From contig JACPCX010000177.1 in NCBI GenBank assembly GCA_016184305.1, forward strand, positions 1-63,207: a stretch of DNA of 63,207 nt. The letters run 5' to 3'. Each line of letters starts with the position of its first letter. Positions within the stretch are counted from its first letter, which is position 1. This DNA is from Candidatus Rokuibacteriota bacterium. Lineage in GTDB: Bacteria; Methylomirabilota; Methylomirabilia; Rokubacteriales; CSP1-6. The position numbers were made by a program. Positions 21,001 through 27,000 of this stretch are shown piece after piece.

Positions 21001-24000
21001 CACCGGGGCGAGCCTCTGACAGAGCGGGTGCAACTCTACCTGACCCCCGGAGTGAGCGTGGAGCCGGCCGCGGGGTGGAATCTCCGGGCCGGGGTCCACC
21101 TCCCGGTGACGAGCGCCAGGGAGGTCGACTGGAGCCTCATCGTCATCCTCACCCGAGGCTTCTAGCCGCGCCCATCACGCGCCGCGCGCGGCGCGTGATG
21201 CTGGCGCTCATCGCGGCTGCGCTCTTCCAGCTCCGGGCCGGGCTGATGCTCGCCGTCCGGGAGTGGGTGAGACACGGTGACGACACGTGGTCACGCTCGG
21301 TGACGCGAGCGTCCTCATCCTGCGCGATAGGCAGAAGACAGGCCGGCTCCGCCATGCCCCCGAGAGCGGCCCTTTCGAGCTCAACCGGGACGAGGCCGCC
21401 AGGCGCCCGCGCTTCACGTTCAGCCCCGGAGTCAAGCCCGTGATCCGCCTTGCGTGGGGCCGTCGGGCGCCGCCTTGCTCCTGGGCCTTTTCTTGAGCGG
21501 CCTGGGTGGCGGGGCAGCAGCCTGCTACGAGGGGCCCGGCACCGCCTCGGCCGCGGGCAGAAGCCCCGCGGCGGGTAGCTCCCGGAGCTCCAGGATCAGC
21601 GCATCGAGGCGAGCCGCCGTGTGGCGGGAGTACTCGTACAGGTGCTTGTGCATCAGCGCGAGCGTGACGGCGTCCCGGATGGCGCGGGGGCGCCGGAGGG
21701 CCGTCTCCAGGACCATGGAGAGCGTCAGCCAGGCGCGGCGCGGCGAGGCGTTGAGCACGCAGGCCCAGACGATGCGGAGCAGCAGCGTGAGATCGCCGGG
21801 CGTGGTCGCGAGCCGGGATGTGCGGAGCGCCCCCCGCCCCAGGATCAGCGCCATGGCGCGCCTGCGGTAGTTCCCGTAGTCGTAGAGCCGCTCCAGCAGC
21901 CTCCGGTAGCCCTCGTAGAGCTCCAGGCGTGACATGCCCTTGGGGATGATGTTGGTGAAGACGAACTGGTCCCCCACCGACTCGGCGATGAGCCGGCCGG
22001 CCGCCTTGAGCCGATCGTAGAGCGGCGTCTTGGGCACGGCATTGAGCATCCCGGTCATGGAGATGGGGATGCGGGCGGCCTGGATGAAGCGGAACTGCTC
22101 CTCGAAGATCTCCGGGTCGTCGCTGTCGAATCCCACGATCATCCCGGCCATGACCTCGATGCCGGCGGCCTGGATGCGGTGGACCGAGGTGAGGATGTCC
22201 TCCCGCATGTTCTGCGTCTTCCCGGTGGACTCGAGACTGGCTCTCCGCGGCGACTCGATGCCCACGAAGATGGTCGAGAAGTCGGCCCGCCTCATGAGCG
22301 CCAAGAGCTCGTCGTCCTGGGCCACGTTGAGGGACACCTCGGTCATGAACTCCACGGGGTAGCCGTTGGCCTCCTGCCACGTGGCCAGCGCCAGCAGCAG
22401 CTTCTTGGCTTCCTTCTTGTTGCCGATGAAGTTGTCGTCCACCACGAAGATGTTCCGCACGCCGAGCCGGTGGATTTCCTCCACCTCGGCCATGACCTGC
22501 TCCACCGACTTGGTGCGCGGGCGGCGGCCGTACATGACGATGATATCGCAGAAGTCGCAGTTGAAGGGGCAGCCGCGGGCGAACTGGATGGCCATGCTGC
22601 GGTAGCGCCCGATCTTGAGGAGGTCGAAGCGCGGCAGCGGCGAGTCCAGCATGCTGGGCTTCTCCTCCTGCCGGTACTCCGCCTGCCACGCGCCGGCCTC
22701 ATACTCCCGGATGAATTGCGGCCAGGTGTACTCGGCCTCGTCCACGAAGAGCACGTCCACGCGCCCGCGCAGCTCGTCGGGGCAGAGCGAGGCGAAGGGG
22801 CCGCCCGCCACCACGAACTTCCCGCGCCGGCGAAGCTCCTCGATGATCTCGAACATCCGCGTCTTGTGGACCACGTAGCCCGTGACGCCCACGATGTCGG
22901 CGTCGGTGTCGAAGTCTATGGACTCGACGTTCTCGTCGCAGAGGACGATCTCATGCCCCGCGGGCGTGAGCGCCGCCACCGTGGGGAGCGAGAGGTTGGG
23001 GAAGGCGCAGCGCTTGCCGAGGCTCGGCAGGATGCGGTCGAAGGTCCAGAAGGACTCGGGATTCCTTGGCGCGATCAGGTAGATCTTCACGTGGGTGTCT
23101 GAACCCCCGCGGCGCTGGGAGAGAGGCCAGAGCCGCTGAGGTCCCGGGGATCATACCCGACCCCCCGCCCCGGCGCAACCAATTCCCTTATCCCCCCGGG
23201 CCGCGGGCGAGGGATGACAGCGACTCAGATCGCGTGAAGAAAGTCGCGCCGTCCGAGGTTCCGGCGGGGGCGGGCGGGCAACAGCCCGGGTGCCCGCCCC
23301 CGGGGTGAAGATGATCTGGGTCATAACGCCCGGCGCACCGACGCCGTCACACTGATCCATGGAGGGCTTCGGTCACGCGACGGACAGGGAAGCGATGATG
23401 AGTCTACCGGTGAGGAGGCCCCGAGGGGTCATGTTGATCTCATGGTGAGCGCGCTGTTCTCCCACCGGCTCTTCGCGCCGTCGCTGGTCCTGGGCATCTT
23501 CGGCCTCGGGGCGCTGACGGTGGCCTTCCTCCTCTTCGGTCCGGGCATGGCGCCGTGGGCCGACACGCTCCTCACCGCCTGCTTCGGCTGGAACGCCGAG
23601 ACCCGCCACTATCGCCTCGACTCCCTCATCCTGACGCTGCTGCAGCCGCCGCTCTTCGTCGCGGTCGTCTCCTTCTTCTACCCGGACGAGCTGCGGGCAT
23701 TCCTCCGGTCCCACGCCGGACGCGTCCTCGCGGGCACCACGCCGGCGCTGTTCCTCGCGCTCGCCGCCTCGCTCCTGGCCACCAGCGAGATCTCGGCCTC
23801 GGGTGTGGCGCCGGCCCCGGCGGGGCTGGCAGCGCCGCTGCGCCAGGGCGGCCCGGCCCCCGCGTTCTCGCTGACCGACCATCGGGGGCGCACGGTGTCG
23901 CTCGGGAGCTTCAAGGGCCGCCCCGTGGCCATGACGTTCGTCTACGCGAACTGCCACGCCACCTGCCCGATCCTCATCCAGAGACTCAAGGCCATCGAGG

Positions 24001-27000
24001 CAAGAACGGCGCCCGGCGCGGCCGCCTTCGTGGCCGTGAGCCTGGACCCGGAGCGCGACACTCCAGGTGCCCTTGCCCACGCGGCCCACCAGTGGGAAGT
24101 CGGGGAGCGGTGGCACCTGCTCAGCGGCCCCACCGAGGCCGTGCGCGCTGTCCTCCGCGCCTACGGCGTCCAGTGGGCGCCGCTCCCCGAGGGCGAGATC
24201 GCCCACGACAATCTCGTGCTCCTCATCGACGCGCGGGGACGGCTGGCATTCACGTATCGCGGGCTCGCGCACCCGGAGGACCGCCAGGTGGCCGACCTTG
24301 CTCGGCTCGCGAGAGAGCAGGGCTAGGCCCATGTACTCTCCCGGGTCGCGAGAGCCCGCCGCGGCGGGCCCCGCCGAGGGTGCGCCCACGCCGCCGCCGC
24401 GCCCGGCGCCCCGGGCGGTCCCCTTCACCATCTTTCCCGCTCCCAGCCGGCCCACGGAACCTCTCCACCGCCGCGGGCTCGCCGCGGTGGGTATGGCCTA
24501 TCAGTGGGTTGAGGTGCTGCTCGACCGCCTGGTCTCGGCGCCGCTGAACCCGCTCTATCACAGCGGGACCATCGCGGTGTTCTCGCTGGCGGTGGCGCTC
24601 GTGACCGGCATCTATCTCTTCCTCTTTTATCGGGTCGGCACGGATGCCGCGCATCAGTCCATCGAGGGCATCATGGCGCACCCCCTGGGGATCGGGTCGC
24701 TGATGCGCTCGCTCCACCGTTATTCCTCGGATGCGGCCATGCTGGCCGCGGCGCTCCACGGCCTCAAGATGTTCCTCACCGACCGGTTCTGGGGCGCGCG
24801 GTGGATCGGCTGGGTCACGGGGCTCACCCTGCTGGCGCTCGTCTGGGTCACGGGCGCCACGGGCTACTGGCTCGTGTGGGACACGCAGGCCCAGGTGCTC
24901 TCCGTGACCTCGGCGAAGCTCCTCGACGTGCTGCCGGTCTTCGGCGAGCCGCTGATCCGCACCTTCCTCGATGCGGGCCGCATCCAGAACTTCCTCTTCT
25001 TCGTTGTCCTCTTCATCCACATCACCATCCCGATCCTGCTCGGGGTGGCCTACTGGATGCACGTCATGCGCCTCTCGCGCGCGCGCTTCATGCCGCCGCG
25101 CGTGGTCCTGTGGGTGACGGGGGCCGCGCTCGTGATCGCCAGCGTGCTCCGGCCGGGGCTCTCGGGCCCGCCCGCCGATCTCGGGCGGTTGCCCGGCATC
25201 GTCCCGCTGGACTGGTTCTACTTCTTCTATTTCCCGCTGACGCGGCTCGATCCGCTCTGGGGCTGGGGCATCGTCGGCGTCGGGAGCGTCGTCACGCTCG
25301 CCGTGCCCTGGGTGCTGCGCGGGGCCGCGCCGCCGCGGGCGAAGGTGGAGAACCCCGCCTGCACGGGCTGCACCCGCTGCTGGAAGGACTGCCCCTACGA
25401 GGCCATCATCATGGTCCCGCGTCCGGCCGACGGCAGCCGCTACAAGCAGATGGCGGTGGTGAACCCCGCCAAGTGCGTGGGCTGCGGCATCTGCGTGGGC
25501 GCCTGCGACTCCGCCGGCATCCTCCTCGGCGACCAGCCCGTGAGCCTGCTGGGCCAGGCCGTGGCGAGCCGGCTGCGCAGCGTGGCCGCGGCCTCGGGCG
25601 GCCAGGCCCCGGTGCTCGTCTACACCTGCCGGCTCATGCGCGGGCTCCAGGGCCGGCTCAGGGCCGACGGGACCCTCGAGGGACTCCCGGGCGTCACGGT
25701 CATGGGCCTCCCCTGCGTGGGCACGCTCCACCCGGACATGATCACCAAGTCCCTCGAGGCCGGCGCCCGCGGCATCTTCGTGGCCGGCTGCGTCCCCGAG
25801 GACTGCCCGTACCGCGAGGGCAGCCTCTGGCTCGCCGAGCGCCTCCAGGGGCAGCGTCTGCCCTCCCTCAAGACGTTGCCCGAGGGCCGCCTGCGGGTGC
25901 GCTGGTACTCCCCCGTGGAGGTGGGACGCTTCCTCGCCGAGCTCCGCGCCTTCCAGCGCCAGCTTCCCGCCGGAGCGGGGACGCCGCGGACCGAGGCGGT
26001 CCAGGCATGACCGGGCCCGTCTTCGAGCCCCGCCGCCCGCCCCTGGCCTGTCTCGCGGGCTTCGCGCTCCTGCTCACCGCCGTCTCCTGGGGGCTCGGCG
26101 CCTTCGCCGCCTTCCCCTGGGCCGCCTCCGACCCGCAGAGCGCGGTGGTCCGCGTGGCCGTCAAGCACGTCGCCTCCTTCGAGCACGAGGCCGCCGCGCG
26201 GTCGAAGGAGGAGATCGAGAAGCTCCCCCGCCACATGCGCCCGCAGAGCCCCGAGGGCTCGCGAACCGGCCGCCGCGTCCGGAGCCTGCTCAGCCTGGCG
26301 GTGGACGGCCAGCCGCAGCTCCGGAAGAGCTATTCGCCGGGCGGCCTCCGCGGCGACGGCCCCACCTTCGCCTACGAGGAGGTCTCCGTGGCTCCCGGCC
26401 GCCGCCGGCTCCAGGTCACCCTCGCCGACGGCCACGCCGACCGGGACCAGGAGCGGCCGCGCCGCTGGACGCTCGAGCAGGACGTGGAGATCAAGCCGGG
26501 GCAGGCGCTGCTGATCGAGTTCTCCGAGGACGCCGGGCTCACGCTCCGGTAACCTCCACTGCGCGCTGGCGTCGCGTCCCCTCAGTGGTCTAGAATCCTC
26601 TACATCCCGTCCTTCTACAACGAGGCCGCCCTGATCCGCGACATGGGGATCACGGTCTTCCTCATCGAGCATGACATGAAGGTGATCATGGACGAGCCCT
26701 CGATGGGGCTGTCGCCGCTGTACGCGGACCGGATCTTCGATATCATCCAGGAGCTCAATCGCCAGGGCATCGCCATCCTGCTGGTGGAGCAGAACGCCAA
26801 CATGGCCCTCGGCATCGCGCAGCGCGGCTACGTGCTGCAGACCGGGCGCGTGGTGCTGGCCGACACGGCGGTGAACCTGGGTCAACCACCCCACGATGCG
26901 CAAGGCATACCTCGAGCTGTGACCACAGGAGGCCCCATGAACAAGATCGAGCGAGTCCGCGCAGCCCTGGCCGGCACGCCGCTGGACCATCCCCCCTTCA

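Follow-up and report, generated by a model that had tools for sequence, protein, structure and literature searches.

A three-gene membrane module of a Candidatus Rokuibacteriota bacterium, at 23442-26552 on the + strand, encodes a fusion of cytochrome b, ferredoxin and MvhD-type domains that is strongly linked across phyla to genes for eNOR-type haem-copper enzymes, those with Gln in place of the cross-link Tyr. We give about an even chance to the reading that the fusion is a Rieske-less cytochrome b of the bc1/b6f type acting as the dedicated transmembrane electron-transfer partner of eNOR, with the Sco protein of the module as the CuA chaperone of the operon. eNOR makes the greenhouse gas nitrous oxide, and the fusion is its very widespread companion; if the partner reading is true, the module would be part of the electron supply of eNOR. 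The DNA analysed, hereafter the window, is the 63,207-nucleotide stretch of contig JACPCX010000177.1 (assembly GCA_016184305.1), in which window and contig coordinates are identical. The module and the domains of its central protein are as follows:

23442..24326, + strand: g01831, Sco/SenC copper protein, 294 aa (Pfam, translation)
24331..26010, + strand: g01832, cytochrome b - 2x[4Fe-4S] - MvhD fusion, 559 aa (translation, Pfam, NCBIfam, conservation, model)
24523..25320, + strand: membrane domain of g01832, residues about 65-330, helices A-F of the bc1/b6f cytochrome b type (sequence and model)
25348..25515, + strand: 2x[4Fe-4S] ferredoxin domain of g01832 (Pfam Fer4 families, Cys conservation)
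25603..25965, + strand: MvhD/FlpD-like domain of g01832 (Pfam FlpD, solved MvhD chains, Cys conservation)
26007..26552, + strand: g01833, TM helix and beta-sandwich, 181 aa (ATGA overlap, homologues, model)

The three genes are translationally coupled, with 4 bases between the Sco stop codon and the g01832 ATG and an ATGA overlap joining g01832 to g01833. Translation, Pfam and coordinates all agree with the three genes and the fusion architecture given in the initial annotation. A second candidate ATG of g01832 lies at 24493 (M55), and residues 1-44 are Pro/Ala-rich with pLDDT below 50 in the predicted structure. One 245-nt RNA-library contig maps to 25252-25496 with one mismatch, which is weak evidence of expression because DNA carry-over is possible.

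In g01832, Pfam places a Cytochrome_B domain at residues 65-249 (6.5e-19), two Fer4 motifs within 343-394 and an FlpD/MvhD domain at 446-545 (9.6e-15). Helix B supplies the haem ligands H129/H143, and helix D supplies H230/H244. Their conservation was measured over 145 sequences, namely g01832 and 144 of the 149 listed representatives (P0124-P0272), with five fragments shorter than 470 aa and P0016 left out. H129, H143 and H230 reach 100% and H244 99%, the eight ferredoxin cysteines (C344, C347, C350, C354, C382, C385, C388, C392) 99-100%, and the MvhD-domain cysteines 97% (C433, C462), 95% (C487) and 79% (C492); the invariance formerly claimed for the haem and cluster ligands is thus near-complete in this larger set. 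The solved sequences nearest to the membrane domain are cytochromes b6 (PDB, E 4e-17). For residues 250-340, all 6 PDB matches are b6f subunit IV, at weak scores (E 0.035-0.95), and they align PEWY to LDWF. The P-L-D-W-F at 292-296 occupies the place of PEWY, the quinol-site motif, and its D294 is conserved in 97% of the 145 sequences. The predicted structure (pLDDT 74.4, pTM 0.73) has bc1 cytochrome b as its top Foldseek matches, E 3e-7 over about 300 columns that cover helices A-F; with six helices, the model puts the Fe-S domains and the N-terminus on the same side of the membrane. Solved MvhD chains match the MvhD domain at E 3.6e-8.

The smaller protein, g01833, consists of one TM helix (residues 13-35) and a beta-sandwich of about 140 aa, predicted by topology to be periplasmic. 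Its model is confident (pLDDT 90.0); Foldseek gives no match at E<=1e-3, and the top VIA hit (Z = 8.6) is a generic sandwich. In most relatives the sandwich is fused to the C-terminus of the cytochrome, and jackhmmer detects it, fused or as the next ORF, in 74/79 compared loci and in 106 of the 145 aligned sequences. This agrees with its previous description as a split-off C-terminal domain of no recognised family, Pfam and NCBIfam yielding no family match. Only D100 and G131 reach 90% conservation, the family alignment contains no conserved metal-ligand set of Cys, His or Met, and the sandwich of the window lacks the two half-conserved cysteines and the His133 of its relatives; therefore, the sandwich cannot itself relay electrons.

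g01831 matches SCO1-SenC (Pfam, 2e-22). Three hydrophobic segments predict three N-terminal TM helices, with C47 in the loop that joins the first two, followed by a periplasmic SCO domain (residues about 135-290) with C171-x3-C175 and H255, which are present in 100% of 73 aligned Sco proteins. The initial annotation had presented the three-helix domain, with an invariant WCFG, as a feature of the module. It is instead a subclade trait, found with its conserved Cys in 21 of the 72 adjacent Sco genes and in the window; the other 51 are ordinary single-anchor proteins. Within the 22-sequence subclade P34 and C47 are invariant, and the window itself reads A-C-F-G. A Sco gene lies directly upstream of the fusion in 72/79 loci, which replaces an earlier count of 53/71 (18 loci without Sco). 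It is not an obligate third part, however, as clusters of the Chloroflexota type carry their Sco genes upstream of subunit II, apart from the fusion, which directly follows subunit I.

The haem-copper genes of the window lie about 10 kb upstream of the module, with about 7.9 kb of other genes in between, and the module may here be transcribed separately from them:

11030..11557, + strand: eNOR-type subunit II, cupredoxin (translation, shared cluster)
11569..13236, + strand: eNOR-type subunit I (Pfam COX1 8e-62, alignment to ba3)
13244..14668, + strand: HCO-X, degenerate second copy of subunit I (hhalign)
14662..15531, + strand: presumed haem O synthase, CtaB (reading of the translation)

Subunit II has an intact CuA pattern (H...C-x-E-x-C-x3-H-x2-M), and its cluster was found in 63/80 sources, that is, 62/79 loci and the window. 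Subunit I retains the CuB/FeB and haem histidines and matches ba3 chains at E 6.5e-42 (4g71_A, the chain aligned) and 2e-41 (wild-type entries). In the alignment, Tyr237 of T. thermophilus ba3 corresponds to its Gln236 (numbering of window:11560-13233), and Gln at this cross-link position is a marker of eNOR (PMC8756737 Table A4). HCO-X is related to the subunit I family (hhalign probability 100%, E 1.5e-45); among 42 sequences, the haem histidines and one metal-B histidine are retained and the HH pair is missing. The next ORF is one that we take, from its translation, to be CtaB; its homologues were grouped by BLASTP against the window ORF, and in related genomes (L001-L003 and others) a CtaB-like gene directly precedes the Sco gene.

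The fusion family comprises 423 clusters at E<=1e-30, and in the 12/64 scanned parts of a one-genome-per-species collection at least 570 of at least 608 matched stretches were confirmed as relatives. The 79 loci compared are the best-scoring of these relatives, and related genomes among them are not independent samples. The fusion has a subunit I gene on its own strand within 6 kb upstream in 69 of them, from many phyla; in 8 of the 10 others the available sequence ends less than 4.2 kb upstream. The GH-x-[STA]-Q-Q motif, in which Gln takes the place of the cross-link Tyr, is present in 66 of 70 subunit I ORFs; 2 have Tyr there and 2 are truncated. The association with eNOR-type genes claimed for other phyla therefore stands. 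The gene order II, I, (HCO-X), (CtaB), Sco, fusion, sandwich is kept across loci, and neighbours include nirS, nirJ-like genes, NnrS, Rrf2 regulators, hemerythrin and CtaA. A survey of 251 genomes of the phylum found eNOR together with the fusion in 31, eNOR alone in 4, the fusion alone in 2 and neither in 214; G047, which is 95% complete, has an eNOR-like gene and no fusion at E<=1e-40.

The module is not confined to tyrosine-less enzymes, as had been proposed. In 2 loci of the main set and 5 metagenome loci the fusion follows genes for Tyr-bearing B-family oxidases, and there a cytochrome c domain comes after the sandwich. Overall, 10/149 representatives end in a monohaem cytochrome c domain, behind the TM helix and sandwich (PF00034 match in 10/10, 9 above the curated cut-off), and such forms occur directly behind subunit II/I genes (L085, L086). 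A Gallionellaceae paralogue has Fer2, FAD_binding_6 and NAD_binding_1 in place of the 4Fe-4S/MvhD tail.

In the partner reading, g01832 and g01833 would form one membrane protein, a single polypeptide in most lineages, with two b haems across the membrane held by six helices and a PEWY-like pocket on the periplasmic side. At the cytoplasmic face, in place of the quinone-reduction site of bc1, two [4Fe-4S] clusters would lead to an MvhD-type cluster and on to a cytoplasmic redox partner, which in the Gallionellaceae paralogue would be linked to NAD(P)H. A seventh helix would return to the periplasm bearing the cofactor-less sandwich, to which some relatives add cytochrome c, and this element, with or without the cytochrome, could serve for docking and hand-over. 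The fusion may in this way serve B-family-derived haem-copper enzymes, here the nitric oxide reductase eNOR, by passing electrons between the quinone pool or a cytoplasmic reductant and the periplasmic CuA entry site, while Sco would be the CuA-assembly chaperone and no redox subunit. Operon linkage, co-occurrence, conserved ligands, the bc1 fold, the cytochrome c tails and the FNR-type paralogue are all consistent with such a partner. Against it stand the weak subunit IV match and the lack of a Rieske gene: none of the 79 loci, nor the window, has one within 10 kb. This leaves a bc-type quinol site without its usual first acceptor, and the PEWY-like motif is the sole basis for the quinol step.

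The fusion gene also sits among assembly genes (CtaB, Sco, and CtaA in some loci), which would equally fit a role in maturation. The fusion would then be a transmembrane reductase for cofactor insertion into the haem-copper enzyme, acting like CcoG, the cupric reductase of cbb3 oxidases: cytoplasmic electrons passed through the haems would keep periplasmic Cu(I) or the CxxxC thiols of Sco reduced for CuA assembly, with the sandwich as docking domain. The prevalence of Sco directly upstream, only 4 bases away in the window, a CtaB gene that often precedes Sco, the presence of CtaA close by in some loci, and a three-helix Sco with an invariant loop Cys that is periplasmic by helix count all speak for this, and a substrate-independent assembly role would explain the presence of the family with Gln-type as well as Tyr-type CuA-bearing enzymes. 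We nevertheless consider it unlikely, given that Sco is not adjacent to the fusion in Chloroflexota-type clusters, that most Sco partners have a single anchor, that neither g01832 nor g01833 matches FixG_C or PCuAC at E<=0.1 (Pfam), and that no set of Cys, His or Met is conserved in the sandwich. The PEWY-like pocket, which is conserved, and the cytochrome c tail fused to some relatives typify respiratory electron transfer and not a chaperone.

It is more doubtful still that the fusion is an independent respiratory enzyme co-regulated with eNOR without physical or functional contact. Such an enzyme could be a redox sensor, or an NAD(P)H- or ferredoxin:quinone oxidoreductase working through the n-side haem. 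The module here is at a distance from the reductase genes and follows a divergent intergenic region, the cytoplasmic tails look like interchangeable electron-input modules, and quinol:NAD+ oxidoreductase activity has been proposed for the FNR-type paralogue (10.64898/2026.01.22.701106), but the near-perfect co-occurrence and operon order with haem-copper genes in many phyla, and the cytochrome c-tailed form adjoining CuA subunit genes, argue against this reading. Very improbable, in our view, is a helper in haem a/As synthesis that would exchange electrons with the haem O/A synthases to make the modified haem a of eNOR at very low oxygen. Eukaryotic Cox15 depends on ferredoxin and ferredoxin reductase, a donor pair that the ferredoxin-plus-FNR paralogue resembles, and a CtaB-like gene, so named from its translation, adjoins Sco and the fusion in many loci, with CtaA in some clusters. 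CtaA in many eNOR operons and haem As in eNOR are reported as well (PMC11214002), and the oxygen problem of haem A synthesis has been raised (10.64898/2026.01.22.701106). In the examined loci, however, the family was never seen with A-family haem a oxidases, and such a scheme leaves the bc-type quinol-pocket motif and the periplasmic sandwich/cytochrome c without a role.

Although the initial annotation found no description of the module, parts of it have been reported. The eNOR operon of Ferrigenium straubiae contains eNOR II, eNOR I, haem O synthase, sco1, a 'scaffold' and two cytochrome b proteins, a cytochrome b-[Fe-S] and a cytochrome b-[Fe-S]-FAD-NADH protein, both found in the proteome of a denitrifying Fe(II)-oxidising culture (bioRxiv 10.64898/2026.01.22.701106). 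The Gallionellaceae loci of our set have exactly this order. Those cytochrome b genes were termed 'rather unusual' and Ferrigenium markers, whereas the MvhD type occurs here behind eNOR genes in many phyla; the operon description names neither an MvhD domain nor the sandwich (10.64898/2026.01.22.701106). An ORF that combines cytochrome c, b6, DMSOR-beta-like and FlpD domains is also on record (PMC8756737 Table A3), and main-text passages that characterise R. marinus eNOR mention no such partner (PMC11214002).

With bc1/b6f cytochrome b, g01832 shares four haem His on helices B and D, 14 residues apart, helices A-F, the motif at the PEWY position in the ef loop and the top PDB matches, and with cytochrome b6 the R-x-x-H-R-[YW] context. 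Unlike these complexes, it has no Rieske or cytochrome c1/f gene nearby, its helix F runs on into cytoplasmic Fe-S domains, an extra helix and periplasmic sandwich follow, and the PEWY equivalent is P-L-D-W-F. CcoG/FixG proteins have membrane helices, two cytoplasmic [4Fe-4S] clusters and a C-terminal Ig-like domain, and their gene lies in the oxidase operon, but CcoG is not known to have a cytochrome b domain; Pfam detects no sequence relation to the fusion, whose sandwich has no conserved Cys motif. Cytochromes b of the NarI/HdrE/QmoC type likewise have two b haems spanning the membrane, connect to Fe-S carriers in the cytoplasm and are linked to quinones; they belong to another cytochrome b fold family, whereas g01832 is of the bc1/b6f type by sequence and predicted fold. 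Its tail resembles MvhD of Mvh-Hdr complexes (Pfam FlpD match above cut-off) and the ferredoxin-MvhD tail of HdrA2, the NCBIfam model of which aligns through positions 570-768 with residues 335-545 at E 1.8e-22, far below the model cut-off. Unlike in those systems, a membrane cytochrome b carries the tail, and genes for hydrogenase or heterodisulfide reductase are absent from the window; 'hydrogenase iron-sulfur subunit', as databases name the protein, is therefore misleading. Overall, the MvhD-type fusion is a companion of eNOR beyond Ferrigenium, across many phyla.

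The observation of three adjacent genes encoding a Sco protein (g01831), a cytochrome b-2x[4Fe-4S]-MvhD fusion (g01832, the fusion) and a membrane helix with a beta-sandwich (g01833, the sandwich) was confirmed, and the interpretation placed on it by the initial annotation was partly supported. The module is very probably a conserved accessory of operons for eNOR, a nitric oxide reductase family, and B-type enzymes. All three genes are arranged in tandem on the + strand:

23442..24326, + strand: g01831, Sco protein, 294 aa
24331..26010, + strand: g01832, fusion protein, 559 aa
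26007..26552, + strand: g01833, sandwich protein, 181 aa

Between the Sco stop codon and the g01832 ATG there are four bases, and g01832 and g01833 overlap in the sequence ATGA. Residues 1-44 of g01832 are Pro/Ala-rich and have pLDDT <50 in the predicted model; because the alignment of more distant relatives starts at about residue 55-60, the ATG at 24493 is a possible true start. RNA evidence on the module consists of a single short contig from one RNA library, the uncovered parts carrying no information, and a promoter and terminator scan of 23000-28200, made uninformative by 70% G+C, found nothing. The interval 23234-23400, between a divergent radical SAM gene and the Sco gene, contains a G+C-rich hairpin. 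Its summed contig depth in runs from soil and groundwater is very high, many of the matches being partial. Neither an Rfam match at E<=0.01 nor a tRNA was found there, and the depth is probably due to cross-matching of a short G+C-rich sequence. A URO-D-like gene (26643-27860, + strand; Pfam 8e-20) starts 90 bases after g01833 and is not a conserved neighbour elsewhere.

The first protein, g01831, matches SCO1/SenC (PF02630, 2e-22, 80 bits against a cut-off of 22.8), and the CxxxC pair and distal His (C171, C175, H255) are present in all 73 aligned Sco proteins. Its three-helix N-terminal domain with a conserved loop Cys had been taken as a general feature of the module; it is confined to 21 loci and the window (Rokubacteria, Myxococcota, Rhodothermales/Bacteroidota, Verrucomicrobiota and others), and the remaining 51 Sco proteins next to a fusion carry a short anchor of the usual kind. 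The WCFG motif described as invariant in this domain also did not survive, as the window itself reads A-C-F-G; within the three-helix subclade P34 and C47 are invariant, and C47 is followed by F or Y.

The fusion protein, single-copy in this genome, combines Cytochrome_B (PF00033, residues 65-249, 6.5e-19), two 4Fe-4S motifs (residues 343-394) and FlpD/MvhD (PF02662, residues 446-545, 9.6e-15, 55.1 bits against a cut-off of 22.3). NCBIfam matches of the module proteins are all far under their cut-offs, the best being an ExtP b-type cytochrome and the C-terminal part of HdrA2. Conservation was assessed in an alignment of the query with 144 of 149 representatives at 50% identity (P0124-P0272), five fragments of <470 aa being left out. 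Two b-haem His pairs, each spaced 14 residues, lie on helices B and D (H129/H143 and H230/H244); H129, H143 and H230 are conserved in 100% of the 145 sequences and H244 in 99%, and the eight [4Fe-4S] cysteines in 99-100%. The [2Fe-2S] cluster of MvhD/FlpD involves four cysteines, and the corresponding domain here carries C433 (97%), C462 (97%), C487 (95%) and C492 (79%). A HMMER search of 1.84 billion representatives returned 423 fusion clusters at E<=1e-30. The domains, invariant ligands and spread put forward initially were reproduced, and the database name 'hydrogenase iron-sulfur subunit' mislabels protein clusters by the hundred.

The membrane domain of g01832 is of bc1/b6f type and extends past the four-helix b6 core. 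Among solved sequences it comes closest to cytochrome b6 (E 4e-17), and residues 250-340 searched alone gave six PDB matches, all to b6f subunit IV and all weak (E 0.035-0.95). In this weak subunit IV match the P-L-D-W-F of g01832 aligns to the PEWY region, L-D-W-F standing against PEWY, and D294 is 97% conserved. The AlphaFold model (pLDDT 74.4, pTM 0.73) has six long helices ahead of the Fe-S domains, and Foldseek returned 73 matches at E<=1e-3, the best to bc1 cytochrome b chains (E 3e-7, about 300 columns). With a cytoplasmic N-terminus, as in cytochrome b, and six helices, the ferredoxin and MvhD domains are placed in the cytoplasm; the helix of g01833 would then put the sandwich in the periplasm. 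A selenocysteine was considered for matches of the phylum survey flagged as having stops inside, and dropped: four of five flagged regions were checked (the fifth, G110, has one TAA), and a stop fell within the tblastn-aligned span in only one, locus L097. That stop lies 13 codons before the end of the span and is read as the gene's own; loci L096, L098 and L099 have none.

No Pfam family matched g01833 at E<=0.1. By phmmer against the representatives it matches the last ~120-170 residues of homologues of 640-790 aa (best E 1.9e-21), and jackhmmer detects the domain in 106 of the 145 sequences aligned and at 74 of 79 loci of fusion relatives, either within the fusion or encoded by the following ORF; at the other five loci the sequence ends at or just past the fusion gene. 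The sandwich protein is therefore a split-off C-terminal domain of the fusion family, as originally described, and of no known family. Its model (pLDDT 90.0) comprises one helix and an eight-stranded sandwich. Foldseek gave no match at E<=1e-3, a wide VIA search found generic sandwiches only (143 chains at Z>=5; best Z 8.6, the luminal domain of an acetyltransferase), and the ESM Atlas held only clusters of hypothetical proteins. Across 184 aligned sandwich domains only D100 and G131 reach >=90%; two Cys occur in 55-57% and one His in 77%, and the window copy lacks all three. There being no conserved ligand set across these domains, the sandwich appears very unlikely to hold a cofactor. Membership in the PCuAC copper chaperones found no backing either, with no family match at E<=0.1 and no conserved His/Met set in the 184 domains.

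Gene neighbourhoods were compared after a scan of a one-genome-per-species collection with a 12-sequence fusion alignment, which in 12 of 64 parts gave at least 570 confirmed relatives among 608 matched stretches. The 79 loci used for synteny are the best-scoring of these 570, not a random sample; their neighbouring ORFs were grouped by all-against-all clustering and then drawn as gene maps. The conserved order is (small ORF), subunit II, subunit I, (HCO-X), (CtaB), Sco, fusion, sandwich, (hemerythrin), (HCO-X), brackets marking genes present in part of the loci only; the CtaB label comes from the translation of the window ORF and BLASTP grouping. A Sco gene lies immediately upstream of the first fusion gene in 72/79 loci. 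The seven exceptions comprise an overlap artefact of the adjacency criterion (L035), a contig edge (L027), a short upstream flank with Sco downstream (L016), a divergent arrangement (L006), 4.1 kb of unrelated upstream sequence (L004), and two Chloroflexota loci with Sco genes ahead of subunit II (L062, L070). Subunit I is found on the same strand <=6 kb upstream of the fusion in 69/79 loci, and eight of the other ten have <4.2 kb of upstream sequence. Further conserved neighbours include nirS with nirE/DL/J-like genes, a NirI/NosR-like protein, NnrS, Rrf2 and Crp regulators, CtaA, HemN and cytochrome c.

At three Rokubacteria loci (L001-L003) the eNOR-cluster genes CtaB, Sco and fusion are contiguous; in this genome the CtaB-like gene and Sco lie ~7.9 kb apart. 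An insert at 15685-23150 splits the cluster in the window's genus, and the spacing differs again in two congeneric genomes. The genes upstream of the eNOR genes and in the insert are as follows:

5972-6538, + strand: COX1-like fragment, 188 aa
6701-7822, + strand: protein with DUF1858 and two DUF2249 domains
7819-9123, + strand: weak COX1-like membrane protein, 434 aa
within an ORF at 7923-10559, + strand: NirJ-like radical SAM, C-terminal part DUF59-like from its translation
within 15685-23150: HAMP histidine kinase and sigma-54 response regulator
within 15685-23150: ORFs of 171 aa and 284 aa, no family
19262-20089: dihaem cytochrome c
21525-23150, minus strand: B12-binding radical SAM with DUF4070

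The haem-copper enzyme of the window is assigned to the eNOR family by its Gln marker, B-family kinship and CuA-bearing subunit II, all read from sequence. The closest solved structure to subunit I (11569..13236) is Thermus thermophilus ba3 (E 2.2e-41; wild-type entries 1ehk_A and 1xme_A); Gln236 aligns with ba3 Tyr237, all metal and haem histidines are retained, and subunit II as translated shows the CuA ligand pattern. Gln at the site of the cross-linked Tyr serves as an eNOR marker in the methods and Table A4 of PMC8756737, and Rokubacteriales genomes are scored eNOR-positive in supplement file 7 of PMC11214002. Biochemistry of eNOR is reported for the R. marinus enzyme only (PMC11214002).

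The claim that the module travels with a tyrosine-less enzyme stands for most loci and fails as a rule. The motif GH-x-[STA]-Q-Q-[IV]-N occurs in 66/70 subunit I ORFs of the loci, two more being cut before the motif, and GHP-x-V-Y-F-W in the two from Chloroflexota (L062, L070); five metagenome loci are likewise Tyr-type. In a survey of the phylum (eNOR-like subunit I at E<=1e-60, fusion at E<=1e-40), 35/251 genomes carried the former and 33/251 the latter: 31 had both, four eNOR only, two the fusion only and 214 neither, counts that come from related genomes and not from independent samples. Three of the eNOR-only genomes are 72-86% complete with matches at contig ends, and the fourth (G047) is 95% complete; the fusion-only genomes are 71% and 84% complete.

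Next to subunit I, HCO-X (13244-14668, + strand) is a second, degenerate copy of the haem-copper subunit I, conserved in 41/79 loci. By hhalign (probability 100%, E 1.5e-45) it is truly homologous to the eNOR subunit I family, and it retains H78, H234, H365 and H367; since it lacks the HH pair, two of the three metal-B ligands are gone.

The fusion occurs in several forms. A C-terminal CxxCH occurs in 10/149 representatives (P0134, P0154, P0157, P0158, P0187, P0188, P0203, P0223, P0254 and P0271), all of which match Pfam Cytochrom_C there, nine above the curated cut-off; in P0187 the order is TM helix, sandwich, monohaem cytochrome c tail. Such tailed fusions are found on metagenome contigs at L085:7836-10331, L086:7998-10352 and L083:463-2682. 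Where context exists, they lie right behind a Tyr-bearing ba3-like oxidase with two to three Sco genes ahead of subunit II (two in L085, three in L086). A Tyr-type GHPLVY subunit I shares a contig with the fusion in L084, L085, L086, L087 and L094, immediately before it in four of the five and ~6 kb upstream in L087; the other type of metagenome locus had the Gln motif in both examples examined. In Gallionellaceae, the first of two paralogues has Fer2, FAD_binding_6 and NAD_binding_1 where other members have the 4Fe-4S/MvhD tail. This paralogue sits between Sco and the sandwich gene, immediately behind the former, and an MvhD-type copy follows further on, downstream of HCO-X. One such paralogue, with a plant-type [2Fe-2S] ferredoxin, is L019:5677-7614 (+ strand), and L023, L024, L034, L041, L044, L045, L048, L053 and L069 are alike.

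The simplest reading, held with middling confidence, is that the fusion is a dedicated electron-transfer partner of the CuA-bearing B-family-type enzyme encoded next door. The constant elements in this reading are a bc-type two-haem transmembrane wire with a conserved p-side pocket, an n-side Fe-S or flavin input/output module that differs by lineage, a p-side anchored domain, lengthened by cytochrome c beside true oxidases, and the neighbouring enzyme itself; Sco would be its CuA chaperone, as is common in such operons. Outward electron flow from a cytoplasmic reductant is thermodynamically easy. A role for the fusion in copper/Sco maturation is unlikely, and it stays a serious rival because the fusion gene is placed among assembly genes. 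That the fusion is an independent enzyme seems improbable beside its conserved position, and a part in haem a maturation very improbable.

We regard it as quite improbable that the fusion is a Rieske-less, quinol-oxidising, electron-bifurcating cytochrome b. Of the two quinol electrons, one would then exit on the periplasmic side, via the sandwich or cytochrome c, to eNOR or an oxidase of very high potential. The second would be driven across both b haems and along the [4Fe-4S]/MvhD wire (in Gallionellaceae, the ferredoxin-FNR tail), where it would reduce a cytoplasmic acceptor of low potential, for instance NAD(P)+ or ferredoxin. If this were true, NO reduction would pay for reverse electron flow, a new mode of energy coupling for denitrifiers and Fe(II) oxidisers, and quinol bifurcation at a site lacking a Rieske protein would itself be new.

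The initial annotation had found no description of the module in print, which needs correction: it was partly noticed in a 2026 preprint on Ferrigenium straubiae. The eNOR operon described there runs eNOR II, eNOR I, haem O synthase, sco1 and a scaffold protein, along with two cytochrome b proteins termed 'rather unusual'; a quinol:NAD+ oxidoreductase and a supercomplex are proposed, and the proteins are reported from a proteome (bioRxiv 10.64898/2026.01.22.701106). HCO-X is probably this 'scaffold protein'. A Chloroflexi paper tabulates, without comment, a single ORF that combines cytochrome c, b6, DMSOR-beta-like and FlpD domains (PMC8756737). Within the searchable full-text literature only these two touch on the fusion; the accessible text of PMC13274419 and PMC10734462 mentions eNOR and not the fusion. 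In the main text of PMC11214002 the only operon remark seen is that many eNOR operons contain CtaA, its eNOR passages name no natural electron donor, and its searchable supplements (files 2 and 5 fall outside the search) mention no Sco protein, cytochrome b or operons. Judged by its sequence, the fusion is a widespread variant of the cytochrome b lineage.

The eNOR enzymes are one of the newly recognised NOR families, which together account for much of the NOR diversity in the environment and so of N2O production, according to PMC11214002. The module bears on the wiring or building of this N2O-forming enzyme. The fusion, which nearly always accompanies eNOR, is a concrete candidate for its respiratory wiring or maturation, combining a cytochrome b of bc type with an Fe-S wire in the cytoplasm and a domain in the periplasm, and culturable eNOR carriers make it open to direct testing. 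For bioenergetics, it would be a bc1/b6f-lineage cytochrome b with an n-side Fe-S exit and no Rieske protein.

Compared with known systems, CcoG/FixG cupric reductases find no echo in Pfam, with no FixG_C or related family in g01832 or g01833 at E<=0.1. The C-terminus of g01832 resembles MvhD/FlpD in its PF02662 profile match and differs in association, no Pfam family of hydrogenases or heterodisulfide reductases having turned up in a scan of 29 window ORFs or in the clusters of conserved neighbours. Rieske/cytochrome b complexes have a partner Rieske [2Fe-2S] protein, whereas the pattern CxHxGC...CxCH was found in 0/80 sources (79 loci and the window) within 10 kb on each side where the contig allows; what g01832 shares with these complexes is the two His pairs spaced 14 and a sequence and fold match over helices A-F, with a weak sequence match (E 0.035-0.95) for the subunit IV part.
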